From: a virus
Strand: one strand, 5' to 3'
DNA: 47,049 nt
IMG/VR virus record: IMGVR_UViG_3300048134_000195
Location: 1-47,049 of that record
In this document: positions 8,362 to 40,816 of the stretch, piece after piece
Layout of the letters: every line of letters begins with the position of its first letter
Numbering within the stretch: the first letter of the stretch is position 1
Made by a program: the position numbers and the translations under genes
Notes under the pieces: model-generated
What the model was told of the DNA's origin: nothing
The model's input: the letters and a program-made list of their open reading frames with translations, nothing else
The model's database searches: none

Positions 8362-8946
8362 ATGGACGTCTCCGAAGAAGATCTGATTGGCGAGCCGCTC
8401 GACCAGGTACCGGTCCAGGATTCGACCGATGAATCTTGCATGGGGCGGCGGTGGGAGCGCCGGGACGGGGAGAAGGTGTTCGTCGGGTACTGTGGGGCGT
8501 GGCCAGGCAAGGGCACGGACGACGTCGGCGAGGGCCGCTGCTCGAAACACGGTGGGGCTGGCGGTGCTCCCGAGGACAACGACAACGCCGAGGGGAACGA
8601 CGGTGGCGCGCCCGAGGACAACGACAACGCCGCCGACCACGGCGCGTACTCGGAGAAGTTCCTCGAGGGGTTCGTCGGCCCGGACGGGAAGGACCGCATC
8701 AAGGAGGGATTCGAGCTCTCGAAGACGTCCGAGGGCGCGCAGGATCAGGCGCGCTTGATGGCGCAGGTCGCCGCGGAGAAGTTCCGCCTCACCGGCGACG
8801 AGCGATTCCTCCGCCGATACGAGTCGATCTGTGACAAGGCGGGCATCTTCCCGAACGAGGAGCTGGACGTCAACCACAACGGCATCGAGGACGCGTTCAT
8901 GGGGAACCTGAAGGACTACCACGAGGATGACGATGTCGACGAGTGA
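8362..8946 (+). CDS. terS: Terminase small subunit candidate (194 aa)
   Basis: Lies directly upstream of, and overlaps, terL. Motif GRCSKHGGAGGAPEDNDNA..HGAYS. The call rests mainly on position. Confidence 0.55.
   Translation: MDVSEEDLIGEPLDQVPVQDSTDESCMGRRWERRDGEKVFVGYCGAWPGKGTDDVGEGRCSKHGGAGGAPEDNDNAEGNDGGAPEDNDNAADHGAYSEKFLEGFVGPDGKDRIKEGFELSKTSEGAQDQARLMAQVAAEKFRLTGDERFLRRYESICDKAGIFPNEELDVNHNGIEDAFMGNLKDYHEDDDVDE
8569..8632 (+). repeat. In-frame duplication inside the terS candidate: a 22-nt exact repeat with 42-nt period
   Basis: cccgaggacaacgacaacgccg at 8569-8590 and again at 8611-8632. Peptide GGAPEDNDNA occurs twice. Confidence 0.9.
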
Positions 8947-10594
8947 CCACCTCGGCCACGACCGCGGCGACGCGCATACCAGCGACGTCGACGCGCCGAA
9001 GCCCCCCGCGCACTACGCTCGCCGGGCGGACGCGGGCGACGAGACGTGGATCGAAGACGCCATCGAGGACTACCTCGGGATTCGCCTCGGCCACACCCAG
9101 CGCCGAATCTGTCGCGCCGTCGCGACCAACCACCAGGTGCTCGTCGTCTCCGCAAACTCCCTCGGGAAGTCCTACATCCTCGCCGCCATCACGATCGTCT
9201 GGCTGCTCTGCCGGTACCCCGCCGTGTCGTTCGCGACGTCAGGGACCGAGCGGAAGATGAAGCGGACGTACTGCAAGCCCGTTGAAGCACTCCACGGGGA
9301 TGGCCGCATCCCGCTCCCCGGCGAGTACAAGAGCCGGCCGGAACGCATCGAATTCGATGACGACCCCGAGCACTTCTTCGAAGCCTCCAGCCCACGGGAC
9401 GCCGGCGAGCTCGAGGGCGTCCACGCCGCGTACACGCTGGCGATCATCGAGGAGGCGGACAAGTCAGCCGTCGACGAGGACGTCATCGAGGCGATGCGGT
9501 CGCTCGCGAGCGACGACCGCGACCGCCTGATCGCCATCGCAAACCCACCCGAGGACGAGACGAACTCGATCTACCCCCTGATGGACGACCACCCGAACTG
9601 GGAGGTCATCCGCTTCTCAACGTTCGACTCCCACAACGTCCAGATCGACACCGGACGGACGTCCGGCCGGAAGATCGACGGGATCGCGGACATCTCGAAG
9701 CTCCAAGACGACTGGGTCGAGTTCAACGGCTCCGAGTGGCCCGGCTATGAGGACGCCCTCCGGATGTCCGCACCCCGAATCGACGAGGACGGCAACTACG
9801 TCTTCGTCGACGACGACACTCTCCCGCGGAACCCTGACTTCGAGGAGAACCTCTCCAAGCGCTGGTTCCGACGTCGCGCCGGCATCATGCCCCCGGCAGG
9901 CGCCAGCGTCAACCGCCCGTTCACGGTCGCCGACGTCAACTCGGCCTGGGAACGCGGCGACCTCCTCCAGGACGAACTCGACCGCGGCGACTTCGTGCTG
10001 CCGCCGGCGACCAGCTCGGGGATCGACGTCGCGCGGAGTGGCGACCAGACGGTGCTCGCGACGATCCACGAGAACGTGATGGTCATCCACTACAGCGAAC
10101 GCGGCACGAACCACACCGACCAGAGTGCTGCCCTCGAGGACATCCTCGTCGAGATGCAGCGCCACCCGATTGCAATCGACTTCATCGGCCACGGCAGCGC
10201 CGTCCACGACAACCTCCAGGAGTCACTCCCCGACGTCGGGAAGTTCGAAGCCGGCTCGACAGCGTGCCAGCCGACGGACTACCGCGACAAGTGGGCTGAG
10301 GGCATGGCACTCCTGGGAGAGTGGCTGGAGGACGGCGGCATCATCCTCGACCGGACGCTCCGGACGCAGATGCTGGCCGGCGCTCGCGAGCTCGAGTTCG
10401 AGGAGAAGTTCATCGGGAGCCGTGGCGAGGACGGCGAGAAGGTCTACACGCTCTCGTCGAAGGACGACATCAAGGATCGCCTCGACGAGGGGTCGCCGGA
10501 CTACCTCGACGCCGCGATGCAGGCGGCGTGGGCGGCCTCCGATGACACGGCGTTCGAGGACTCTGCCGGCGACAGCTGGCTGATTACTCAGTAA
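8927..10594 (+). CDS. terL: Terminase large subunit (555 aa)
   Basis: Track ORF. Walker A-like VVSANSLGKSY and Walker B-like LAIIEEAD. Size and position upstream of the portal fit. Confidence 0.85.
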   Translation: MTMSTSDHLGHDRGDAHTSDVDAPKPPAHYARRADAGDETWIEDAIEDYLGIRLGHTQRRICRAVATNHQVLVVSANSLGKSYILAAITIVWLLCRYPAVSFATSGTERKMKRTYCKPVEALHGDGRIPLPGEYKSRPERIEFDDDPEHFFEASSPRDAGELEGVHAAYTLAIIEEADKSAVDEDVIEAMRSLASDDRDRLIAIANPPEDETNSIYPLMDDHPNWEVIRFSTFDSHNVQIDTGRTSGRKIDGIADISKLQDDWVEFNGSEWPGYEDALRMSAPRIDEDGNYVFVDDDTLPRNPDFEENLSKRWFRRRAGIMPPAGASVNRPFTVADVNSAWERGDLLQDELDRGDFVLPPATSSGIDVARSGDQTVLATIHENVMVIHYSERGTNHTDQSAALEDILVEMQRHPIAIDFIGHGSAVHDNLQESLPDVGKFEAGSTACQPTDYRDKWAEGMALLGEWLEDGGIILDRTLRTQMLAGARELEFEEKFIGSRGEDGEKVYTLSSKDDIKDRLDEGSPDYLDAAMQAAWAASDDTAFEDSAGDSWLITQ

Positions 10595-29874: not shown

Positions 29875-30135
29875 ATGCGACCGCCGGCCAAACTATCCCG
29901 ACGACAGTTACTGGCCACCGCAACTGCGTCCCTGGCCCCAATTACAGGCTGTTCCAGAAACGGCAGTTCGCCGACATCGGCAGAGACGCCAACTGACTCG
30001 GCTGATACCCTCGTTATCGAGACAAAGGAGACTCACACAGCAACTGGAGAGCAGTCCTACACAGCAGTCGAATGGCATGACGAAGGAGCCCTCGTCGTGG
30101 AGCAGAGCGGAAGTTTAGAACTTACTGAGCAATAA
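29875..30135 (+). CDS. Secreted Tat lipoprotein (86 aa precursor)
   Basis: MRPPAKLSRRQLLATATASLAPITGC has a twin-arginine motif, a hydrophobic core and a lipobox ITG/C. The track lists 29869..30135 with a TTG start. Confidence 0.65.
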   Translation: MRPPAKLSRRQLLATATASLAPITGCSRNGSSPTSAETPTDSADTLVIETKETHTATGEQSYTAVEWHDEGALVVEQSGSLELTEQ

Positions 30136-30136
30136 C

Positions 30137-31267
30137 ATGGCTAAGATTAAACTCATCAACGAGAACGGCGTCATCAAAGGTATCGACCCAGAAACGGGTG
30201 AAGAGGTTCCGGTGGAGTTCGAGGACCTAGAGACTCAATCGGTAAGTACAGAGGAAGCACTAATCGGGAAAACCAATCCCTATCAATACGTCTCCGAGAG
30301 CCACACCACAGTTACTGTTCCCGGAGATTACGATACAATCCAAGAAGCAATCGACGACTGTCCGAAGAATCTCCGCCACGAGTACGTCATTGACGTTGAT
30401 AACGGGGCTTACGACGAGGACTTGGTATTCAGAGGCATCGCGAATCAAGGATATACGGGTGCGGAGGCATCGACCGGCGGGATTGGCACTGATGGAGAAC
30501 ACGGGATCATCCAGATAGTGGGCGACACTACAACGCCATCGAACGTCAAAATAAATTCGGTGACGGCGATCGGATGCACGGGCGTCCAAGCGCCCACCTT
30601 ATGGGGCGTGGAACTCAACGGCGCAAGCCCGCATGTTGACGAGGACACGACCGCGGTCTTCTCAGGGTGTCAACAAGCGTTTCTCGGGGATTGTAACTTC
30701 CGAGGAGGTGCAAATAAAGCGGTTACTGCATATGGCGGCAACCTCCATGTTCGCAATATGGATGTTGGGGCTGATAACTACGATATCGCGCTATATGCAA
30801 AGCGACAGGCCGCAATCCACGAGCGTAACACTTCAGGATCCGTGACGGATAGAGGATACGTCGCCTCTGACGCTTCTTCAATCCATTCTCAGCATGATAG
30901 TAACATTAGTTCTCCCAATCGCAAATATGACCCGGTGAGTGGCTCCTATACGGTTATAGGGCCGCAGGGAATCAACTTCCAAAATGTCCAACTTCTCGGG
31001 GATGCAGGTGGACTAGAAATAAACGACAGGGTGGGGAGTGTCCCGTTCATTCTCCGAGACCTAGAGAACGGTGTGGAACGGTTCCGTGCCGAAGGCAAGG
31101 GGTACGGCAACTCCCACATTGAAAACCTGTCGGGACAGACTGGCGACTTCGACGGGCAGGTGCGGCTTGATGATGGTTCTAACACTCCACACCGAGGCGT
31201 TGAATGTGTCTGGGACGATGTGAATGGTGTTTGGGTTGACCAGACGGACGGCAGTACCTTCACCTAA
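30137..31267 (+). CDS. Right-handed beta-helix (pectate-lyase-like) protein, probable receptor-binding tailspike or depolymerase (376 aa)
   Basis: Track ORF. Repetitive G/N/T/V-rich short-strand pattern (VTAIGCTGVQ, FSGCQQAFLGDCNFRGGANKAVTAYGGNLHVRNMDVG). About 47-50% G+C. Confidence 0.6.
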   Translation: MAKIKLINENGVIKGIDPETGEEVPVEFEDLETQSVSTEEALIGKTNPYQYVSESHTTVTVPGDYDTIQEAIDDCPKNLRHEYVIDVDNGAYDEDLVFRGIANQGYTGAEASTGGIGTDGEHGIIQIVGDTTTPSNVKINSVTAIGCTGVQAPTLWGVELNGASPHVDEDTTAVFSGCQQAFLGDCNFRGGANKAVTAYGGNLHVRNMDVGADNYDIALYAKRQAAIHERNTSGSVTDRGYVASDASSIHSQHDSNISSPNRKYDPVSGSYTVIGPQGINFQNVQLLGDAGGLEINDRVGSVPFILRDLENGVERFRAEGKGYGNSHIENLSGQTGDFDGQVRLDDGSNTPHRGVECVWDDVNGVWVDQTDGSTFT

Positions 31268-31335
31268 TCAGTCCTGATTCTCTTTTAGCGGGTGTCTCAC
31301 CGCCAGCATCCTGAAAGAAACACCCGGCGCCGAGG

Positions 31336-32175
31336 TTAGTGCCGGAGTTGCTGGAGGGCGTCCTCCAGGCGCTCCGGACTCTCCTCGATGTACGCAATCG
31401 CCGTGCTGAACTGACTCCACCCGAATAGGGCTTTCAAATCCATCGCCGAGAGACCACGGGCGGCGTAGTAGCTGGCGGCCGTCGCCCGCAGCGCGTGCGG
31501 GTAGATCTCGTCGACGTCGACGGACTCGGTCTGCCGAGCCATCCGGTCGACGCGCCGGTTCACGACACCACGAGACGCTTCGAATTCATCGTAGTGCGTG
31601 AAGTAGTCCTCAACGGCGAGCGCTGCCCGCGTACTGGCTTCCGCGTACGGGATCTTCCTCGCAGCGTTCACCGTCTTCGGCGACCACATCTGCGCGTAGA
31701 ATGGCTCCGCGTCGACGAATAACTCGTAGACGTGGCCGCCGGGCTCGAGGACGTCGTGCCGCCCCAGGCTCTGGTAGTGGTCGTCGAGCGTGTTTGCCGT
31801 GCGGATGTCCGCCATCTGCTCGGCGGCACCACGGCAGTGCCCACAGATGTCTCGCGTTCGCCCGTCGGTACAGGGTTCGTGTTTCGGGATTTCGATGCGT
31901 TCGTCCTCCCAGTTGACCCAGTCCGCTTTCATGTGCGCGACCTCACCAGGTCGCATGCCGAGGCGGCCGCACGCGAAGAGGACGAGCCGGCACTCCCGAG
32001 CGAAGTAATCATCGTCCATCCGGTAGGTCGCCTGCACCATCTGCTCGAACTGGCGTTCGGTGATGGCGTCCTCCTTGGTGTGACGGACGGCATCGTCGCT
32101 TGCCCAGTCCTTTCCGTGGTCGTCGCCGGTGACGGGCTTACGGCCACGCGGCCGCTGCTGGTCCGACGAGCTCAC
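31336..32175 (-). CDS. int: Tyrosine recombinase / integrase (279 aa) with a Cys-containing insertion
   Basis: Track ORF. Motifs GMRPGE (Arg), HALRATAASY (HxxR) and GWSQFSTAIAYI (Tyr). Insertion is CTDGRTRDICGHC. Confidence 0.85.
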   Translation of the reverse strand: MSSSDQQRPRGRKPVTGDDHGKDWASDDAVRHTKEDAITERQFEQMVQATYRMDDDYFARECRLVLFACGRLGMRPGEVAHMKADWVNWEDERIEIPKHEPCTDGRTRDICGHCRGAAEQMADIRTANTLDDHYQSLGRHDVLEPGGHVYELFVDAEPFYAQMWSPKTVNAARKIPYAEASTRAALAVEDYFTHYDEFEASRGVVNRRVDRMARQTESVDVDEIYPHALRATAASYYAARGLSAMDLKALFGWSQFSTAIAYIEESPERLEDALQQLRH

Positions 32176-32831
32176 GGCTCGCCCGCCTCCATGATCGCTT
32201 CCAGGTATGCGAGGACGTCCGCGACCTCGCCGAGCAGCGGCAGCGGCTCGAGTGTCGACGCGCGCCCCAGCGTCCGGTAGTCGACGAGTCCAGCAGCATC
32301 CAGCCGCGGGACGTGTGTTTCGTGGAGCGCGACGTAGAGACTCTTGACGGCCTCTGTTCCGGGCCGGGTGTCGTGTGTTCTGAGGGTGCCGGTGTCGATG
32401 CCGTGCGCGAGCTCGGGCGTGGTGACGAAGCCGCGTTCGTCGACGTCGGGCTGCCAGTCGTCGAGGACGCGGATGGCAGCGCGCCGCCGGTCGTTCGCGA
32501 GGACGTCCAGGAGCTCGTCGAGCGTGATCTCGAGGCGGGCGCTGTCGGGCGTAGGTGGCCGGCGGCCACTGCCATCAGCGACAGCACTCCCAGTGCCGTC
32601 AGCCGTGGTTTGGTGGACGTAGACGTGCTGGAGGCCGGCGTCGGCGGTGATCTCGCCGCGATCCTCGAGGCGCTGCAGGAGCGCCTGGAGGTGGCTGCGG
32701 GTGATGCTGAATCGGAGTGCGAGCCCCTCGATGGTGGCCGGGTCGTCGAGCCAGTCGAGGTACTCAAGGACTTGCTGTGGGGTTGGTTCGCTAGCGTTAC
32801 CACTCTCTACTGGTATGTTTTCGTGGTCCAT
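32172..32831 (-). CDS. wHTH DNA-binding protein (219 aa)
   Basis: Track ORF with ATGA overlap onto int. LEYLDWLDDPATIEGLALRFSITRSHLQALLQRLEDRGEI and a second HTH-like half. Confidence 0.6.
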   Translation of the reverse strand: MDHENIPVESGNASEPTPQQVLEYLDWLDDPATIEGLALRFSITRSHLQALLQRLEDRGEITADAGLQHVYVHQTTADGTGSAVADGSGRRPPTPDSARLEITLDELLDVLANDRRRAAIRVLDDWQPDVDERGFVTTPELAHGIDTGTLRTHDTRPGTEAVKSLYVALHETHVPRLDAAGLVDYRTLGRASTLEPLPLLGEVADVLAYLEAIMEAGEP

Positions 32832-32945: not shown

Positions 32946-33950
32946 TCAGTCTGCGGCGTCGCTGCGATGCCAGCCCCACGCAATCGGGGCGGCCATCGCG
33001 ACCGTCGCGACCGGCAGCATCGTCGACGCGCCCAGACTCGGGACGGACCCCGCGATGCCAGCAGCTGCCAGCCCCACAACAGCCCCATACTTCCCCGCCT
33101 TCACTGCCGTCTTCGACTCCGCAGGCGTGAACCGGCCAATCGTTCGGTCACCATTCTCGACGTCCTGGACGTCGTCAGCGAGCGTTTCCACGCGGGCGGC
33201 CATCTGGTCAGCGCCGAGCGCGGACAGCTCTGCAGCGGCGCCCATCGGCGTCGAGGAACTGATCTTTGCGTAGACGTCGTCGGCCGGTGTGGTGTCGGTA
33301 TCCCAGTTGGCACCGTCGAGGAGATCGGCGTCGGCGAAGTCCTGGATGATTTGGTCGTCCGAGGAGATTGCAAGATAGTTTTTCATCGTCGCGTAGTCTT
33401 CCCAGCCGCCGACGGCCATGACGGTCTCCATATTCATGTCGTGGCGGACGAGACAGTTGGTGGCAAAGTATCGGCGGAGGTCGTGTGGCGAGAAGTAGCG
33501 CTCGTAGTCGACGTCGCCTGTTTGTTCGGTGACGAGCGTCCCGATTTTATACGCCCAGTCGTTCATCGTTCTCGAACTGATGCCGACGAGCGGTTCGTCA
33601 TCGGGGATGTGTGTTTCTTCGCGGATTGTTTCGATGCAGTCGATGGTTGCTCGAGTGAGTGGGACTTTGCGATATTTTCCGTTTTCTGTTTTGCCGGTGG
33701 TGTCTTTCCCCCAGACTTCTGCGAATTTGATGTCGGTGTCGAGGTTGGTGTTGACGATGTCGTTGTAGGTGAGGTCGACCATGCCGTCCTTGCGGAGGCC
33801 GCGGCCGCCGAGGCGGGCGAAGAGTTCGGCTTGTTTTGGGTGGCCGTGAATCGAGATTGTTGATGCGATGTCGACGATGAGTTCGAATTCTTCTTGGGTG
33901 GGGAAGAGCGCAGCTTCGTCTTCGTTTTCGAGTTGGCGTTTAGTGGCCAT
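32946..33950 (-). CDS. Second tyrosine recombinase (334 aa) with a ~130-aa C-terminal extension ending in two hydrophobic segments
   Basis: Track ORF. Motifs GGRGLRKDG, HDLRRYFATN and GGWEDYATMKNYL. Tail contains YGAVVGLAAAGIAGSVPSLG and STMLPVATVAMAAPIAWGW. Confidence 0.75.
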   Translation of the reverse strand: MATKRQLENEDEAALFPTQEEFELIVDIASTISIHGHPKQAELFARLGGRGLRKDGMVDLTYNDIVNTNLDTDIKFAEVWGKDTTGKTENGKYRKVPLTRATIDCIETIREETHIPDDEPLVGISSRTMNDWAYKIGTLVTEQTGDVDYERYFSPHDLRRYFATNCLVRHDMNMETVMAVGGWEDYATMKNYLAISSDDQIIQDFADADLLDGANWDTDTTPADDVYAKISSSTPMGAAAELSALGADQMAARVETLADDVQDVENGDRTIGRFTPAESKTAVKAGKYGAVVGLAAAGIAGSVPSLGASTMLPVATVAMAAPIAWGWHRSDAAD

Positions 33951-34185: not shown

Positions 34186-34434
34186 ATGCCCTCGACCAGC
34201 ACCGAAGACCGCATCCTCAGAACAGTCGACGCCCAGACCAGCCCCGCCCAGCCCGACACCGTCCGCCCGGGGACGATCGTGCTGACGCTCGCCGGCAACG
34301 GCTCGATGAACCCCGGCGACGTCCGCCAGGGGATGCAGTCGGCTGTCGACGCCGGTCGACTCGAGCACACCGAGGAGGGGCGTCTTCGCGTTGCGGATGG
34401 CGTCGACGTGCCGGTCCCGGGGAAACCCGCGTGA
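34186..34434 (+). CDS. Hypothetical small protein (82 aa)
   Basis: Track ORF. Acidic/neutral composition, and the only plausible frame in this gap. Confidence 0.45.
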   Translation: MPSTSTEDRILRTVDAQTSPAQPDTVRPGTIVLTLAGNGSMNPGDVRQGMQSAVDAGRLEHTEEGRLRVADGVDVPVPGKPA

Positions 34435-34688: not shown

Positions 34689-35081
34689 TCACTCAATCGC
34701 GTAGCCCCATCCCCGCAGGACCTCCGCAATCTCGTCGTCGTGCTCGAGGCCGACCAGCAGCGCAGCCTCGCGCAAGTCCGCCTTCTTCACAGACTCGCCG
34801 AGCAACTGCTCGACGTCACTCTTCCCGGCGCGTTCAGCGTCCACAGTATCGGCTTGTAGATGGAGTTGCACCGTCTTCTCACGCCCGTCCGTAATGCTAT
34901 TTCGGCGATGAATCCATGGCAGCCGCGTCGTCGTGTCACCGCCAGCATCCTGCACCGACCCACCCGTCGACTCAGGAGTCTGGTCGCGGTCGACGTCGCG
35001 ACGATCGTCGGCGTCCTCTTCCTCCTCAAAACTATCATCATCCCAGTCGTCGTCCGCAGCGCCGCTCTTGAATCCAGCCAT
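34689..35081 (-). CDS. Acidic protein with a C-terminal RHH-like domain, ParG-like partner of ParA (130 aa)
   Basis: Track ORF with ATGA overlap onto parA. C-terminus is ..LPWIHRRNS..VQLHLQ..ADLREAALLVGLEH..LRGWGYAIE. Confidence 0.55.
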   Translation of the reverse strand: MAGFKSGAADDDWDDDSFEEEEDADDRRDVDRDQTPESTGGSVQDAGGDTTTRLPWIHRRNSITDGREKTVQLHLQADTVDAERAGKSDVEQLLGESVKKADLREAALLVGLEHDDEIAEVLRGWGYAIE

Positions 35082-35968
35082 CAGGCGGTCACCTCGGTTT
35101 CATCCTCGTCGTCGAGCGCACCGGGCTCAGGCGGGGATGGTGCCTCAATCCCGCCAACGCGCTCGATGAACCGCGCGATTTCGTCGAACTGCGCGAGCGT
35201 ATCCACTTCGTAGTCCCGGCGCCGGTCGCGGTGTTCACGAACGTACTGATACGCCGAGCACTGTTGCCGCCAGCACCCCTCCAGCAGGGCCGTCCGGTCC
35301 CCGATCACCGCGGGGACGTCGTACGGGATCTCCTTGAGGAGGTCCTGCTGATCGCTCGTTCCCTTGACCCCGACGGGGACGGCGCCGAGGACACCGACGT
35401 CGATGTTCAATTCGTCCGCGAAGTTCCGCGCGAGGTCCTCCAGCCCCTCAACTGCTGCTTGTCCTTTCGCGCTCGGTTCGACTGGGAGGAGGAGGTTTCG
35501 CGTGGCGTAGATCGCGTTGTAGAGGTGTGCCCCCTCCGTTGCGGGCGGGTCGACGATGACGACGTCGTACTCGCTGGGGACGTCGGCTTCTTGGAGGACG
35601 CGCCGGAGCTGGGCGTGGACGTTGTATGCTTCGCCGAAGTCCTCTGCTTTCTGCTTCTCGCGGCGGAGGTGGTCTTCGAGGTCCGACAGCGCGTTGTGCT
35701 CGGGGACAATGTCGACGCCCTCGGCGGTCCGAATGAGGTCGTGGAACGGACCGCGTGGTGAGTCGACCATGTGGCGGACGATGTTGTCGGCTGAGGAGTT
35801 CTCGCGGTCGTCGTCGACGTCGAAGAGGCGGCTGAGGTTTCCGTCCTGGGGGTCGAGCGGAACCACGAGGACGTCGAGGCCGGCTCGGCGATGCGCGACG
35901 GCGAGGTTCGCAGTAAGCGTCGTTTTGCCGACGCCACCTGCCTCCGAGTACACGGTGTACGCGAGCAT
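35081..35968 (-). CDS. parA: ParA/Soj-type partition ATPase (295 aa)
   Basis: Track ORF. Deviant Walker A VYSEAGGVGKTTLTANLA and Walker B-like YDVVIVDPPA. Confidence 0.85.
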   Translation of the reverse strand: MLAYTVYSEAGGVGKTTLTANLAVAHRRAGLDVLVVPLDPQDGNLSRLFDVDDDRENSSADNIVRHMVDSPRGPFHDLIRTAEGVDIVPEHNALSDLEDHLRREKQKAEDFGEAYNVHAQLRRVLQEADVPSEYDVVIVDPPATEGAHLYNAIYATRNLLLPVEPSAKGQAAVEGLEDLARNFADELNIDVGVLGAVPVGVKGTSDQQDLLKEIPYDVPAVIGDRTALLEGCWRQQCSAYQYVREHRDRRRDYEVDTLAQFDEIARFIERVGGIEAPSPPEPGALDDEDETEVTA

Positions 35969-36003
35969 AGTCGTAGCTGTGTCTCTGAGGTAATGAATCT
36001 ACG

Positions 36004-36019
36004 TCAGACACTTGTCTGA
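36004..36019. promoter_or_regulatory. Palindromic operator candidate TCAGACA-CT-TGTCTGA upstream of parA
   Basis: 7-bp arms about 35-50 nt upstream of the parA ATG (35968). Contains CACTTGTCT, which is also at 37957-37965. Confidence 0.45.
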
Positions 36020-36074
36020 GAACGATAGATGAGTGAGATATCTTAGTAAGAAGTCTATCTAAGACGCCTAAGAT

Positions 36075-36854
36075 TCAATTCTGAGACTCTGATTCTGGCT
36101 GGTATCCCCACTGAACAAGCTGATCTACGACAAGTCCGGGACGTTCTATTGCCGCGAGGATGGCAGCTTCCCGAAGATCTGCGCGATAAACATCTTCATT
36201 CAGTTGGGTTTCGATCTGGTTCTGGAATTCCACGAATTTGCGCGCGGTTTCGTCTTGGAGGTGCAGTTGCTTCGTGACACTCCGATCCGTGACAGGGGAC
36301 TCACGCTGATAGATCCAAGGGAGTGAGACGTCTTCGGTGGTCGTCTCGTGTTTGTCATCTGGGTCGCCCGTCGCGTAGCTGACGAGTTCCTCCCAGTGTT
36401 CGGTAAGGCCAGTCAGGCCGATCCGGCTGAGATTTCCATCGATTACATCAAAGCTAAACTCGCCAGTGGCGTGAGTGGTGGCGCCGATGACGGGGCCGTA
36501 TCCAGATGCGTTGTCAAGTAGCGACTCGTTTTCGTCGAACAGATAGTCCGCAGCGACAAGGATTGGGTGGCAGTCTGCAGCTGCGTAGTCTCGGAGTTGC
36601 GATGCCGCTCCGATGGAGTCCGCGAGCGTCGTCTTCACCTCGAACGCGTATTTCGCAGAGGGCTCAACGCTGAACTCGTTTTCTTTCATCAGCATTACGT
36701 CGGCTCGGCGCTCCCTGCCGTCGACGGTGACCGGCTTCTCTTCGTGGACAACGACGTCGGTCGCACTATCCTGGAACTGGTTGGTGTACTCGCTAAGCGT
36801 ATGCAGAAGTGCTCGTTTCAGGACGTCGTGGTCCATTGTATCGAGGTCACCCAT
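36075..36854 (-). CDS. PD-(D/E)xK-like nuclease domain fused to a C-terminal RHH-like domain (259 aa)
   Basis: Track ORF. Candidate catalytic residues in RRADVMLM and YAFEVKT. The C-terminal ~75 aa are alignable with the C-terminus of 34689..35081. Confidence 0.55.
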   Translation of the reverse strand: MGDLDTMDHDVLKRALLHTLSEYTNQFQDSATDVVVHEEKPVTVDGRERRADVMLMKENEFSVEPSAKYAFEVKTTLADSIGAASQLRDYAAADCHPILVAADYLFDENESLLDNASGYGPVIGATTHATGEFSFDVIDGNLSRIGLTGLTEHWEELVSYATGDPDDKHETTTEDVSLPWIYQRESPVTDRSVTKQLHLQDETARKFVEFQNQIETQLNEDVYRADLREAAILAAIERPGLVVDQLVQWGYQPESESQN

Positions 36855-37470
36855 CGAGGAGTTCCTCCCGCGCCTCCTGGACGCGCTGGTACTCGGCCTC
36901 GTCCCCGCCCTGGTCGGGATGCGTCTCCTTCACGCGCTCCCGATACGCCGCCCGAATCTTCTCGGGACTGGCGTCGCGATCGACACCGAGGATAGTGTGG
37001 GCGGGGGGCTCGCCGGCGACGACTGCGTCGGTGTCCCCGTCGGCAGGTGGGAGGCGTGCGTTTGCGAACTCTGACTCTCCGGTCGCGACGGGACGATTCT
37101 CCATCCGGCGCTTCTCACGAAGGTACAGTCCGGCCTGCCGGACATTATCGCGGAGCCGGGTGTGAGTGTCGCAGGCGACGGCGTAGTCGGCGTCGTCCAT
37201 TCGCCAGCGCAGCACGAACCCAGGGTCATCTGGGTTCGCACGGGCGTATGGTCGCTGGTCGGTTTTGCGCTGCTGGGCGTCGAACTCGTAGCGGTATCTG
37301 TCCGCGCCGATGCGCTCGAGCTCCTTCTCCAAGTCGTCGAAGGCGTCCGAGAGAGACACCGAGAAATTGTTGTTCGGTTCTCGGTGCTCTGCGCTCGTTC
37401 GGTCAAAGCCGGCTGGCCAGTCGATACGCGAGTTCGAACGGGTAGATGAGGTCGTTGAGTTACTCGCCAT
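36847..37470 (-). CDS. J-domain (DnaJ-like) protein (207 aa)
   Basis: Internal ATG 37470 of track ORF 36847..37578. C-terminal ILGVDRDASPEKIRAAYRERVKETHPDQGGDEAEYQRVQEAREELL contains the HPD motif. Confidence 0.8.
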   Translation of the reverse strand: MASNSTTSSTRSNSRIDWPAGFDRTSAEHREPNNNFSVSLSDAFDDLEKELERIGADRYRYEFDAQQRKTDQRPYARANPDDPGFVLRWRMDDADYAVACDTHTRLRDNVRQAGLYLREKRRMENRPVATGESEFANARLPPADGDTDAVVAGEPPAHTILGVDRDASPEKIRAAYRERVKETHPDQGGDEAEYQRVQEAREELLDG

Positions 37471-37945
37471 CGAGGATCTCCTCCATGCGGTCGAGGGCGT
37501 CCTCGAGGTTGTCTCGGTTGAGGTTCTTCTCCGCACGCTGGGCGTCCGCGAGCGCGTCCCGCAGCTCATCAACGTCAATGCTCTGTGATTCGGCTTCGTG
37601 GAGTTCGCGTTCGAGGCGTTGCTTTTCGACGCGGAGCTCTTCGAGCTCGTCGCGTGCCTGCTCGAGTTTGTGCTCGAGCGCGTCGGCGTCGGCGTCGTCG
37701 GTGGTGCCGAGGTCGAGGCGGTCGCGTTGTTCGCTGGGGATGTTCTCGGGTTGGAGTTCGTAGACGCCGCGGCCGACGTTGGTGACGTAGTCGGCGCTCT
37801 CCATCTGTTGGAGGCGTTGGGTGATCCACTGGCGTGAGACGTCGAGTTGTTCGGCGAGGTTTGAGGGGACGTTGCGGCCGGTGGCGAGCGTTTCGAGGAT
37901 GCGCTCGTCGATGTCTTTCAGCTCGTGTGCCATTTGCTGGTGCAT
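37460..37945 (-). CDS. wHTH plus coiled-coil protein, repressor-like (161 aa)
   Basis: Track ORF. ERILETLATGRNVPSNLAEQLDVSRQWITQRLQQMESADYV is followed by heptad-rich LEQARDELEELRVEKQRLERELHEAE. Confidence 0.7.
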   Translation of the reverse strand: MHQQMAHELKDIDERILETLATGRNVPSNLAEQLDVSRQWITQRLQQMESADYVTNVGRGVYELQPENIPSEQRDRLDLGTTDDADADALEHKLEQARDELEELRVEKQRLERELHEAESQSIDVDELRDALADAQRAEKNLNRDNLEDALDRMEEILDGE

Positions 37946-38132
37946 GGATTCATCGCCACTTGTCTATTGTCATCGACACCGTAAATAGTTGACCACTGTC
38001 CGGTACAATACACTTGACAACAGTAAACTATAAGGGCATACGGCGTGTACCCTGAAGTAGAGCCCGAGGGACGCCACACGAGAGAAAGTGGCCGCGTGCC
38101 ATAACACGCGACCTCGGGTCACCGAACGACCC
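37946..38132. promoter_or_regulatory. Divergent promoter/operator (switch-like) region between the minus-strand island and the rightward early operon
   Basis: Low-G+C gap. TATA-like taaatag (37982-37988) and actataag (38027-38034). CACTTGTC-type motifs at 37957, 37993 and 38011. Confidence 0.55.
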
Positions 38133-38582
38133 ATGAGCACCAAAACACCCGACACCCAAGACGATTCCGACCAAACCCTCAACGGGGAAACCGACGCCTA
38201 CGTCATCCCCCACGAGTGGCTGCAGAACGCACCGACCGCCACCATCACCAACGGCGAGACCGAATACTACGCCGTCCTCTACACCGTCGAACGCAACGTC
38301 ACCAACGACGAAGACGTCCTCGCCGGCCGCAAGCAGGGCCGCGCCGAAGAGTGGACCATTCACGCACTCTACGTCCGCGCGGACGGCCAGCGCGCCGTCG
38401 AGTACCCCTACGACGCTCGCGTCATCGACACCGGCACGGGTCTCGACGTCACCCCGCGTGACTTCCAAGCGACCGTCGCCGTCGACGGCGAGATCGTCAC
38501 GCCCCACAGCGCCCCCCAATCCCAGCTAGTCGTCGAAGCGCTCGACGCACTACACGACATCCAAATCGAGGCCGACGCCTAA
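38133..38582 (+). CDS. Hypothetical early protein (149 aa; alternative GTG 38088)
   Basis: Track ORF 38088..38582. ATG 38133 gives MSTKTPDTQDD.... Confidence 0.55.
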   Translation: MSTKTPDTQDDSDQTLNGETDAYVIPHEWLQNAPTATITNGETEYYAVLYTVERNVTNDEDVLAGRKQGRAEEWTIHALYVRADGQRAVEYPYDARVIDTGTGLDVTPRDFQATVAVDGEIVTPHSAPQSQLVVEALDALHDIQIEADA

Positions 38583-39055
38583 TGCGGGGACACGACATCC
38601 ACGGTCGCGGCGCGCGCCGCATCCGCAGCGACCACCGCCAGACCGCCATCGACGAGTTCCATCACCGCATCCTCCGTGATGGCGTCCACGACGACATCGT
38701 CGAAGACGCCCAACTCGCCCACCTCGAAGACGCCATCGCGAAGCTCGAGGACACGCGCGACCGGCGCCGGAGAGAACTTGAGACTGACGCCGATCCTGCA
38801 CAGGCAGTCGTCGACGCGATCGAGGACCTGCAGGAGACGGCACGCGAGCGCGTCATGGAAGTCTGCGCTATGCGAGCGCGGATTGTCCTCGTCGACGGCG
38901 ACGTCTGGGTCCAGGAGGGCTACGAGGACGAGGCCGACGTCGAGGCGGCGAAGCGGGAGGCCGCGACGTGGCTGGTCGCGAACGACGATGTGACGAAGCG
39001 GACGTTCGGCGGAATGGACGAGGCAGTCTCCGAGGAGGTCGATGCCAGTGAGTGA
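38582..39055 (+). CDS. Hypothetical early protein (157 aa)
   Basis: Track ORF. TAATG overlap: the ATG shares one base with the upstream TAA. Confidence 0.55.
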   Translation: MRGHDIHGRGARRIRSDHRQTAIDEFHHRILRDGVHDDIVEDAQLAHLEDAIAKLEDTRDRRRRELETDADPAQAVVDAIEDLQETARERVMEVCAMRARIVLVDGDVWVQEGYEDEADVEAAKREAATWLVANDDVTKRTFGGMDEAVSEEVDASE

Positions 39056-39266
39056 TCACGAGACCGGCAGCCCCCAGAGTCGTCTCGCCGGCGTGCGCAA
39101 GCAGCTGCGGCTTGCCCTCCAGGACGTCGACGACCCCACGGCAGCAGCACGCATCCAAGACGCGCGCCGAGCAGCCCGCCGCGCCAGCGACGAACTCGCA
39201 TCTGTCCCGATTATGGTCGATCCTATTCCCGTGGACACGTCCGAATCCGAGGAGGTCGAGGAGTGA
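39042..39266 (+). CDS. Hypothetical small protein (74 aa)
   Basis: Track ORF. Confidence 0.5.
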   Translation: MPVSDHETGSPQSRLAGVRKQLRLALQDVDDPTAAARIQDARRAARRASDELASVPIMVDPIPVDTSESEEVEE

Positions 39267-39412
39267 TGTCGCGCTGGAGTACTGACCCGGATGAGCTCGG
39301 CGCGGAGATCGCGTACGCGCTCCACGAAGGCATCGACGTCATCGAGCACCTGAAGCGTAAGCATCAGGCCGAGGGCTGGAACGGACCCAGCAACGACGGT
39401 GGTCGAGCGTGA
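39266..39412 (+). CDS. Hypothetical small protein (48 aa)
   Basis: Not in the track. ATGA overlap upstream and GTGA overlap downstream. MSRWSTDPDELGAEIAYALHEGIDVIEHLKRKHQAEGW... Confidence 0.45.
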   Translation: MSRWSTDPDELGAEIAYALHEGIDVIEHLKRKHQAEGWNGPSNDGGRA

Positions 39413-39654
39413 AGAACGTCTTCGATCCCGACACAGAGTTCATCATCGAACCGTCCCAGACGCCAGTTTCGGAGGATGGCTACAAGATTGGCGAGCCGAA
39501 ATACATCGAGTGCGCGCACTGCAGTGCGCGTGAGTTGCTGACCGAGGAGCCATCCCCCGGTGTGGACGAGCTCCAGCACGACCTGGATTGCCCGCAGCGC
39601 TTCGCTCGGACGCCGTGGTGGCGCGACTACTTCCTCCATAACGCCAGCGACTAA
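39409..39654 (+). CDS. Hypothetical small protein (81 aa) with CAHC...C..H
   Basis: Track ORF (GTG start). Confidence 0.5.
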   Translation: MKNVFDPDTEFIIEPSQTPVSEDGYKIGEPKYIECAHCSARELLTEEPSPGVDELQHDLDCPQRFARTPWWRDYFLHNASD

Positions 39655-39686
39655 CCTCCTCGGCTGCCGGTAGTCTTCCTCCAGTC

Positions 39687-39728
39687 TTAACCAACACGCG
39701 ACCGGATAGCAGTGGCTGTGTTGGTTAA
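39687..39728. repeat. 11-bp perfect inverted repeat ttaaccaacac / gtgttggttaa with a 20-nt spacer
   Basis: Read directly. It lies upstream of orc1/cdc6 and is followed by a T5 run (39744-39748). Confidence 0.7.
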
Positions 39729-39741
39729 ATCGTGGGCGGTC

Positions 39742-39762
39742 TGTTTTTCCGAAATAACCCCC
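39742..39762 (+). promoter_or_regulatory. ORB-like element tgtttttccgaaataaccccc (copy 1, upstream of orc1/cdc6)
   Basis: TTTCCGAAA dyad-like core plus a C5 (G-string on the other strand). 16 of 21 positions match the copy at 40825..40845. Confidence 0.4.
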
Positions 39763-39796
39763 AGTAGTTATCCCCGCGCCCACCCGACCACGAGGT

Positions 39797-40816
39797 ATGT
39801 ACGCTCGGTATCACGTCTTCGATGAAGGCTGGGTGCCCGAGGACCTCCATGCCCGCAACGGCGAGCTGCAAGCGCTCGCCGACGCCCTCGACGACCTCGC
39901 GCGTGGGTCCCGTGCGCCTAACCCCGTCCTCCTCAGCGGGCCGCCCGGCGCCGGGAAAACCGCGTCATCCCGGTACGTCCTCGACGATCTCGAAGACTCC
40001 ACGACAGTCCACACGGCGTTAGTCGACGCCTGGACGAACCACAAGCCCTACCAGACGTACGGCGCGCTCCTCCAGGAGCTCGGGAAGGCTGGCGTCGTCC
40101 AACCCCAGACCCCGCACAGCGCCCTCCGTGATCGTGTCCGCGACGCCACCCCAGACGGCGGCGTCGTTGTCGTGCTTGACGAGGCCGACCAGCTTGACGA
40201 CCCACAGATCCTGCGTGACCTCGACGCGATGGCTGGTGTTGCGGTGGTCGCAATCGTCAACGACGAGGCCGGGTTCCGCGACCGGCTCGACCGCAAATCC
40301 GCCGGCGTCGAGTTCCGCGAGTCAGTCCCGTTCGGCCCCTACAGTGAGGGAGAGTTAGTGGATATCCTGCAGCCGCGTGCAAGCCGTGGGCTGCGCCTGG
40401 GGTACCGGCGGACGAACGCCCTCGAGGCAGTTGCCGCGCGCGCCAACGGGAACGCACGGGTTGCCATCCAGGGGCTGCGGGCAGCTGCCGAGCACGCGCA
40501 CGAGTCGAATCGTAGCGAGATCCGCATCTGGGACGTCGAGGCTGGGATTGATACGGCGGTCGAGCAGATCCGCCGGAAGACCCGGTCGCGGTTGCAGCGC
40601 CACGAACGCGTCGTCCTGGAGGTGGTTGAGGATCTTGAGCCGGCGCGGAAAAGCGCGGTCTACGAGGAGTACGCGAATCGGGTTGGGGAGGAGGCGCGGA
40701 GTCAGCGCCGTGTTGAGGATTATCTCTCGAAGTTGACGTCGTATAATCTGCTTGTGGCTGAGGGGGAGACGCGCGCTCGTCGATACGCGGTTGCTGGCGA
40801 GGCGGCGACGGCGTAA
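39797..40816 (+). CDS. orc1: Orc1/Cdc6 replication initiator (339 aa)
   Basis: Track ORF. Walker A LLSGPPGAGKTASS, Walker B VVVLDEADQL and a C-terminal winged helix. Confidence 0.9.
   Translation: MYARYHVFDEGWVPEDLHARNGELQALADALDDLARGSRAPNPVLLSGPPGAGKTASSRYVLDDLEDSTTVHTALVDAWTNHKPYQTYGALLQELGKAGVVQPQTPHSALRDRVRDATPDGGVVVVLDEADQLDDPQILRDLDAMAGVAVVAIVNDEAGFRDRLDRKSAGVEFRESVPFGPYSEGELVDILQPRASRGLRLGYRRTNALEAVAARANGNARVAIQGLRAAAEHAHESNRSEIRIWDVEAGIDTAVEQIRRKTRSRLQRHERVVLEVVEDLEPARKSAVYEEYANRVGEEARSQRRVEDYLSKLTSYNLLVAEGETRARRYAVAGEAATA

Follow-up and report, generated by a model that had tools for sequence, protein, structure and literature searches.

A probable mosaic maintenance arm in a temperate haloarchaeal virus: a repressor-like regulator, a J-domain protein and a nuclease-like fusion protein

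We analyzed a 47,049-nucleotide stretch of viral DNA (IMG/VR record IMGVR_UViG_3300048134_000195, positions 1 to 47,049; hereafter the window) in which three overlapping minus-strand genes, g1 (37945..37460), g2 (37470..36847) and g3 (36854..36075), face the early genes. These encode a repressor-like winged helix-turn-helix (wHTH) regulator of 161 aa, a viral J-domain co-chaperone of 207 aa, and a 259-aa protein joining a putative nuclease domain to a DUF7970 domain of the ribbon-helix-helix (RHH) type. An initial annotation of this DNA proposed that the three genes form one maintenance, immunity or exclusion system. We favor, with a probability of roughly 0.55, the reading that they belong to the mosaic maintenance arm of a temperate halovirus and represent three independently exchanged modules. 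Members of the trio are replaced independently in relatives, homologs of g3 occur without a J gene, and a neighborhood survey found the three genes together nowhere else in the collections searched. Judged from these sequence comparisons, the trio is not a conserved system; its modules are independently mobile and stand side by side by chance. This splits an apparent single three-gene operon into separately evolving parts and shows which of them merit experiments.

The setting described in the initial annotation is borne out. The unit starts at a divergent intergenic control region of 187 bp (37946..38132) that separates leftward g1 from rightward e1, it ends just upstream of the parA site, and it opposes an early/replication operon with e1, e2 and Orc1/Cdc6 on the other strand. 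Because parA, the gene for its DNA-binding partner and a tyrosine integrase gene are co-oriented with g1-g3, we place the unit on the maintenance side of a temperate element, as had been expected from its position. The window makes up one entire public contig. Its large terminase (TerL) shares 74% identity with the counterpart in Halobacterium virus ChaoS9, and the window also encodes a Mu-F-like head protein, two tyrosine recombinases, ParA and Orc1/Cdc6; we therefore regard it as a temperate haloarchaeal tailed virus or plasmid-prophage. In phiH/phiCh1, too, a repressor diverges from a lytic promoter and the maintenance arm contains parA and an integrase, and the corresponding arm of phiH1/phiCh1 governs lysogeny and the plasmid provirus state (PMC6471424). 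Those viruses differ in using RepH and PCNA replication genes where the window has Orc1. In ChaoS9, an HTH gene at the position equivalent to g1 leads a leftward string that ends in parA, with no J or nuclease-RHH gene in the stretch examined. The structural arm of the window (8927-10594) resembles that of ChaoS9, and the early arm (38133-40816) and regulator-J pair resemble those of Halorubrum virus BJ1; the window is a mosaic spanning two virus families.

Exchange of modules along the leftward unit

The boundaries of exchange are clearest in comparison with a related haloarchaeal locus, L017. By blastn, homology between the window and L017 extends over 38995-38063, 37573-36851 and 36089-33901, and the two breaks between these blocks are exactly the operator half of the control region together with the g1 wHTH, and the body of g3. 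The e1-proximal part of the control region, from about 38063 rightward, retains about 86% identity with L017, and the g1-proximal part cannot be aligned. Between g1 and its counterparts in L015, L017 and L024, identity is 24-32% over the N-terminal 75 residues and 72-100% over the C-terminal 40. L024 retains only the g1 tail before blastn homology resumes at 36021. Replacement of a wHTH half together with the adjoining intergenic half, between conserved flanks, is the signature of exchangeable repressor-operator (immunity) modules, and suggests that g1 acts as an immunity-type regulator.

The description of g1 as repressor-like thus gains from the swap as well as from its domain content. Residues ~3-65 give weak but consistent wHTH matches in Pfam (HTH_24, HVO_A0261_N, GntR, TrmB), the protein matches phrog_2440 ('transcriptional regulator', E 8e-11), and its C-terminal half is a predicted coiled coil. 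In PADLOC-DB it matched only generic wHTH parts of the CasR/Csa3 models, and a tblastn search of 50,697 phage records gave no match at E <=0.01. Regulators of the g1 family head a leftward string opposite an early operon in BJ1 (ORF6), L011, L013, L014, L015, L017, L024 and the Natrinema sp. DC36 plasmid, where the string likewise ends at parA. Within the control region, inside the block that is non-homologous to L017, lies an imperfect palindrome (37985..38031) with 16-nt arms at 37985-38000 and 38016-38031, of which 12/16 positions are complementary. TATA-like AT-rich boxes sit at its two ends and point outward: a minus-strand box, AACTATTTAC (37981-37990), and a plus-strand box, AAACTATAAGGG (38025-38036). 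From its sequence, this arrangement is a candidate operator with back-to-back promoters. We also considered whether the conserved C-terminal tail of g1 is a necessary docking site for the J protein, and rejected this because L024 keeps the tail without a J gene.

The second break in homology marks a variable slot between the J gene and parA. In L017, where the J protein is 80% and ParA 94% identical to those of the window, the slot holds an 85-aa zinc-ribbon gene; in L015 (J protein 91% identical) it holds a gene for a 186-aa membrane protein, in L008 three unrelated genes, and in L024 genes of 170 and 101 aa with no J gene. ParA of the window is 92-94% identical to that of L017 and L024. The L017 breaks at 36851 and 36089 bracket the g3 body, and the GC content at third codon positions (GC3) of g3 is 0.635, compared with 0.77-0.84 in the adjacent g1, g2 and parA. 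We therefore regard g3 as a recently acquired accessory cassette. Variable slots beside bacteriophage lysogeny genes often hold exclusion or defense genes, and the exclusion idea of the initial annotation fits g3 alone.

The middle gene, g2, belongs to a widespread viral family. Its product matches Pfam DnaJ (PF00226) with 40.0 bits against a cut-off of 27.8, and J domains among PDB sequences with E down to 6e-6; in an AlphaFold2 (AF2) model (pLDDT 78.5), Foldseek returned J-domain matches at probability 1.0 and a root-mean-square deviation of 0.7-2 Å. An N-domain (residues ~15-124, alpha-beta3-alpha, pLDDT about 90) is followed by a linker (residues 125-153, ~37098-37012) with the motif RPVxTGESEFANARLPP, conserved yet disordered (pLDDT <50), and by a short J domain (residues 154-207) with an intact HPD (THPDQGG). 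Across 39 homologs, H184 and D186 of this motif never vary, and conservation of P185 is 90% or more. The match to phrog_9210 (E 2.3e-61) aligns residues 11-206 with profile positions 5-201 of 204, and of 96 phage records, 77 span 80% or more of the query. Relatives matching the full length come from BJ1, from the lytic virus HCTV-2, from about 90 actinophages, where they are labeled 'DnaJ-like chaperonin', and from at least 384 haloarchaeal protein clusters. For the N-domain and linker, Foldseek searches of PDB and BFVD returned the J domain only, with no structural or family match to either region; a match of the N-domain to a Dicer-like protein (DCL4)-RNA complex entry (E 0.24) was not trusted. 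The linker is almost invariant across the 39 homologs despite its predicted disorder and may be a binding motif.

Haloarchaea encode DnaK/DnaJ/GrpE, and from its sequence g2 most likely brings the Hsp70 of the host to a viral client. A parallel is Rki of phage RB43 (PMC3486835): g2, like Rki, is a J protein of viral origin that would be expected to work with the DnaK of the host. Rki differs in its target, sigma32, which is absent from archaea. BJ1, L008, L010, L011, L013, L014, L015 and L017 share a layout in which the J gene overlaps a small gene that precedes it and the pair diverges from an early operon. That small gene encodes a g1-like wHTH in BJ1, L011, L013, L014, L015 and L017, and no wHTH was detectable in the corresponding products of L008 (111 aa) and L010 (66 aa). 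The BJ1 pair, ORF6 (wHTH) and ORF5 (J), has the same order and overlapping junction as g1-g2 and is divergent from an early operon ending with Orc1/Cdc6; ORF5 is 40% identical to g2 over 92% of its length, and ORF6 31% identical to the g1 wHTH. For this pair only a 'role in DNA replication?' has been suggested (PMC2194725). BJ1 differs from the window in lacking g3, in having no parA downstream of the pair within the stretch examined, and in its J motif, which in ORF5 (L002 5971-6621) is HGD and not the canonical HPD. In other J proteins HGD in place of HPD abolishes Hsp70 stimulation.

Elsewhere the J gene keeps other company. In about 28 of 52 haloarchaeal genomes a divergent tyrosine recombinase gene lies directly or one to three genes downstream of it (L019 7584-8624, L020 7615-8640 and about 26 more such loci among L028-L080), and in Gordonia phage LitninMcQueen (L022 4591-5688) the J gene immediately precedes the integrase. 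In other phages it sits among replication or recombination genes. Since lytic viruses such as HCTV-2 and Microbacterium phages have members of the family as well, its role is not specific to lysogeny or immunity: g2 is a common, portable viral co-chaperone, tied to neither g1 nor g3. The family spans archaeal viruses and actinophages, and its linkage to integrase genes hints at a link between chaperone and integrase, such as chaperone-assisted integration or establishment. One J locus, L076 (NZ_JAUDRZ010000015.1), is filed under 'Rhizobium sp. S152' and contains haloarchaeal-type Orc1, J-domain and integrase genes; it is probably contamination or mis-binning.

The nuclease-like fusion protein and the par-site box arrays

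The initial annotation called g3 a nuclease-RHH protein, and both halves of that description are in keeping with our results, the first through motifs and the second through family membership. The C-terminal domain (residues 166-259; 36075..36359, minus strand) is paralogous to the 130-aa ParA partner, to which residues 166-254 are 40% identical (BLASTP E 1e-16). The partner, g3 and its homologs all carry the precomputed Pfam assignment PF25925 (DUF7970), and the model of the g3 domain is beta-alpha-alpha, as in RHH proteins. It keeps all family-invariant positions, and its presumed DNA-reading strand, TxQLHLQ, is common to 120 of 123 family members examined. All 120 DUF7970 family members listed are 111-153 aa long, which makes the g3 fusion exceptional: unlike a typical DUF7970 partner, g3 has 259 aa, is encoded upstream of parA, and has a folded domain in place of the N-terminal tail. 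Our literature search found no publication on DUF7970, and searches with g3 or the ParA partner of PHROG, NCBIfam, PADLOC and a Pfam set without the PF25925 model gave no match. As the initial annotation had noted, no known defense or toxin-antitoxin family fits: PADLOC-DB contained no match for g2, g3 or the ParA partner.

The N-terminal domain (residues 1-165; 36360..36854, minus strand) is a putative PD-(D/E)xK nuclease, RecB-like by its motifs. In all six known members H9, D52, E72-x-K74 and Q86-x3-Y90 are invariant; in g3 the ExK motif is E72-V-K74, and Q86 and Y90 lie within SQLRDY. D52, E72 and K74 fall on the predicted strands E47-58 and E63-74, and the AF2 model, of low confidence (pLDDT 60) with only three sequences available, gives an alpha-beta3-alpha-beta fold. 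The order D ... ExK ... QxxxY on a predicted alpha-beta3-alpha-beta core is the pattern of RecB/Cas4-type PD-(D/E)xK nucleases, QxxxY being a motif of the RecB/Cas4/lambda-Exo clade. From these g3 differs in having no Cas4-type Cys cluster, in its fusion to a sequence-specific DNA-binding domain, and in the absence of a significant profile or structure match. The top Foldseek list was dominated by restriction-endonuclease-fold proteins, the best E of 0.025 being not significant. A full-length g3 profile retrieved only spurious superoxide dismutase (SOD) and kinesin matches among PDB sequences (E >=0.018), an N-domain profile retrieved nothing from PDB, and tblastn against the phage collection found no match.

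The architecture is very rare. Only three full-length clusters were present among 5.8 billion sequences, namely g3 and two relatives, P0002 (Natrinema sp. DC36 plasmid) and P0003 (metagenomes), and when 1.84 billion were searched exhaustively with the N-domain, four representatives emerged. The distant N-domain homologs P0124-P0126 lie on contigs of 1-1.8 kb, whose contexts say little. In P0125 the N-domain homolog is fused to a wHTH, which suggests a nuclease module targeted by interchangeable DNA-binding domains. At its upstream end the P0125 gene (L081 371-1286) overlaps another wHTH gene, of 82 aa, and both belong to a run of small genes that overlap one another. We consider the fusion of a nuclease-like domain to a centromere-binding domain to be new.

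The likely target of the DUF7970 domain is found in the DNA next to g3. The window has 10 CTTAG/CTAAG pentamers where base composition predicts about 54, a depletion of about 5-fold, and three of the ten fall in the spacer before parA, where they form a box array at 36040..36075 that is a putative set of DUF7970 binding sites. Every locus with a DUF7970 partner has 3-9 such boxes within about 130 bp upstream of parA, and loci with another partner have none; further arrays lie in L017 (6953-6996), L024 (5028-5066), L004 (934-1133), L026 (5024-5080) and L003 (10783-10826). Because the array tracks the DUF7970 partner, it is a good centromere or operator candidate for DUF7970 proteins. Type Ib partition systems (ParF/ParG of TP228, SegAB of Sulfolobus, HpaAB of Haloferax pHV3) resemble the window par locus in pairing a Walker ParA with a small RHH protein encoded after it and in having arrays of short repeated boxes upstream, and by analogy with them we infer that the CTTAG arrays are the centromere or operator of the DUF7970 family. 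To our knowledge, there is no case in type Ib systems of a centromere-binding-protein paralog fused to a nuclease-like domain. The nearest characterized haloarchaeal analog of the window ParA partner is HpaB. We rejected placing the two in the same family, as their similarity is weak and local (15/30 residues) and the upstream repeats differ. The binding site of HpaB is explicitly stated to be missing (bioRxiv 10.1101/2025.11.19.689047), and the CTTAG arrays offer a testable candidate centromere or operator for a large haloarchaeal ParA-partner family.

The position of a g3-type gene is readable in three contexts, namely the window, contigs L004-L006 and the circular plasmid of Natrinema, and in each of them a CTTAG array and then parA follow it directly. 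On the plasmid the g3-type gene (57127-57882) is followed across the record origin by ParA (59-934), and it is preceded by a 69-aa gene, with no J gene. The association of g3 is with parA, and not with the regulator-J pair.

A proposed explanation and its rivals

Our explanation starts from the established gene structure, homologies, mosaic boundaries and box arrays. In it, g1-g2-g3 would be the promoter-proximal unit of a maintenance arm that continues with parA, the ParA partner and the integrase. A g1 dimer most likely binds the palindromic region with its back-to-back TATA-like boxes, where it would repress the rightward early operon and regulate itself; its DNA-binding half co-varies with the adjacent intergenic half, as for heteroimmune repressor-operator pairs. 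The HPD of g2 would recruit host Hsp70 (DnaK) to a client held by the N-domain and the conserved linker, and the gene neighborhoods favor integrase or replication proteins over g1 as that client. The third gene would be a lineage-specific, compositionally foreign accessory cassette in the variable slot, and its DNA-binding domain, borrowed from the ParA partner, would tether the RecB-motif nuclease domain to CTTAG arrays. There g3 most likely acts on par-site DNA of its own or of competing replicons, leading to incompatibility or exclusion.

We can tentatively sharpen this last step, at a considerably lower probability than that of the arm as a whole. The g3 protein may be an inter-replicon weapon, a nuclease with a captured centromere-binding domain that is aimed at the CTTAG centromeres of rival DUF7970-type par loci. 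Rival haloarchaeal plasmids or viruses would be destroyed or destabilized, by nuclease-mediated incompatibility or superinfection exclusion, and the resident copy would be shielded, for example by its own partner protein occupying its array. If g3 is active on par sites, this would be a new mechanism of replicon competition in archaea.

Several observations weigh against the proposed explanation. The CTTAG array of the window is essentially identical to that of L017, which has no g3; a g3 that cuts such arrays would need self-protection, and nothing that we saw explains it. The nuclease fold is assigned from motifs and a model of pLDDT 60, and the domain has no significant match in Pfam, among PDB sequences or by Foldseek. 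The candidate operator is a single short, imperfect 16-nt inverted repeat that could have arisen by chance, and tblastn detected no homology of g1 to the characterized phiH/phiCh1 repressors. The occurrence of the J family in lytic viruses means that g2 need not act in lysogeny. Operon status, the promoters and repression by g1 are inferred from sequence.

It is highly improbable that repressor, chaperone adaptor and DNA-targeted nuclease cooperate in one integrated maintenance, immunity or exclusion system, the part of the initial annotation that did not hold. In favor of such a system, the genes overlap and probably share one mRNA for their translation, their place is on the maintenance side, and no known family accounts for all three together. 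However, they occur together only in this contig, each has been replaced independently in close relatives, g3 homologs are found without J, and about 50 genomes, as well as lytic viruses, have J but neither g1 nor g3, so that the neighborhood survey weakens the idea. The leftward unit might also be an early lytic or establishment operon, with g1 as an activator or Cro-like protein and g2 as a helper in host takeover or replication. J homologs do lie among early or replication genes in lytic HCTV-2, in Microbacterium phages and in Mycobacterium phage phiT46-1, and g1 lacks homology to known halovirus repressors. We nevertheless consider this unlikely: parA, its partner and the integrase follow the unit contiguously and in the same orientation, the joint swap of operator and DNA-binding domain is a classic immunity signature, and Orc1/Cdc6 is on the opposing operon.

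Two further explanations concern g3 alone. As a selfish, free-standing homing-type endonuclease cassette, it would find par regions that lack it through the DUF7970 domain, cut them, and be copied by recombinational repair. Such a cassette would account for how sporadically g3 is distributed (3 clusters, compared with at least 384 for DUF7970), the precise boundaries with conserved flanks, the foreign base composition, the constant position next to the presumed recognition array and the invariant catalytic-type residues. It is improbable given that relatives have unrelated non-nuclease genes in the slot, which is thus a general variable slot; that the intact host array is identical to those of g3-less relatives, so that insertion neither disrupts nor alters the presumed target; and that the Natrinema plasmid has a different upstream neighbor gene. 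Alternatively, g3 could be an auxiliary partition or regulatory factor, a second CTTAG-box binder that modulates par expression or segrosome architecture, with a nuclease-like domain serving oligomerization, sensing or a programmed nick and not an attack on foreign DNA. RHH centromere-binding proteins commonly double as operon repressors, as in type Ib systems (e.g. ParG, omega), and in favor of such a role g3 has the same DNA-reading strand as the ParA partner, always adjoins the par site and leaves its own array intact. We hold this to be doubtful, since by far the most DUF7970 par loci have no g3 and evidently function without it, the invariant D/ExK/QxxxY residues argue for catalysis, and the N-terminal tail through which ParA partners make contact with ParA is missing from g3 (cf. 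HpaB, bioRxiv 10.1101/2025.11.19.689047).

Gene boundaries, junctions and flanking features

The overlaps of 11 nt (37460-37470) and 8 nt (36847-36854) reported in the initial annotation are correct. The first, ATGGCGAGTAA (37470-37460), contains the g2 ATG, and the second, ATGGGTGA (36854-36847), contains that of g3. A codon-usage gene finder trained on the long genes of the window chose exactly g1, g2 and g3 on the minus strand and rejected all overlapping plus-strand open reading frames (ORFs); the window is 64% GC, and many overlapping ORFs are typical of such DNA. The g1 gene also starts with ATG (37945). For g2, a mechanical ORF list gave a longer version starting at TTG 37578, and a JGI gene call a shorter, 170-aa product that by its length would begin around residue 38, at a GTG. 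That call loses a DWPxG motif at residues 17-21 that is conserved in all homologs, and we therefore place the start at ATG 37470.

Junctions of -4, -8 and -11 nt are the rule in 53 related loci; the overlap lengths are therefore ordinary and point to an operon, yet constitute no unusual feature. A GGAGG lies 9 nt 5' of the ATG in g2 (37484-37480) and g3 (36868-36864), and none was found when we looked before the starts of g1 and parA. This pattern weakly fits g2 and g3 as internal cistrons of a single mRNA, as GGAGG is common in Glu-rich coding sequence. Taken together, g1, g2 and g3 are real genes and are probably co-transcribed from the lysogeny side. About 19 nt are common to both junctions (GGAGGAnnTCCTCGATGG; 37488-37468 and 36872-36852), and the g1 and g2 proteins both end in EE[IL]LDG; the common sequence may be a translational-coupling signal or recombination microhomology.

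To the right of the control region, the early/replication operon (38133..40816, plus strand) comprises e1, e2, small genes and Orc1/Cdc6 (39797-40816), and e1 most likely starts at ATG 38133. The leader that separates the rightward TATA-like box from the start of e1 contains a stable GC-rich hairpin of 10 pairs (38090-38113), which is conserved in L017; it could be an attenuator, a processing site or a terminator of antisense transcription. This hairpin was the only useful result of a scan for sigma-70 promoters and intrinsic terminators, models that are not applicable to archaea.

To the left of g3, a 106-bp spacer (35969-36074) holding the CTTAG/CTAAG cluster separates it from parA (35081..35968, minus strand), which encodes a Walker-type partition ATPase (Pfam AAA_31 at 1e-20, plus CbiA and ParA). 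The ParA partner gene (34689..35081, minus strand) encodes a putative centromere-binding protein whose N-terminus is acidic and disordered, and the arm ends with the tyrosine integrase gene (32946..33950, minus strand; Pfam Phage_integrase at 1e-10). Between the last two lies a plus-strand gene for 82 aa (34186-34434) that is about 90% conserved in L017; a family match was sought for it and none was found. Upstream of the main integrase, a second tyrosine recombinase gene (31336-32175) overlaps a DUF7344 winged-helix gene (32172-32831) and may encode an invertase, as in phiH/phiCh1-type viruses. Further left, positions 30001-31300 form a low-GC island (0.52, compared with 0.64 for the window) that is probably another foreign insertion, and within it a 376-aa ORF (30137-31267) gave a weak pectinesterase-like match alone.

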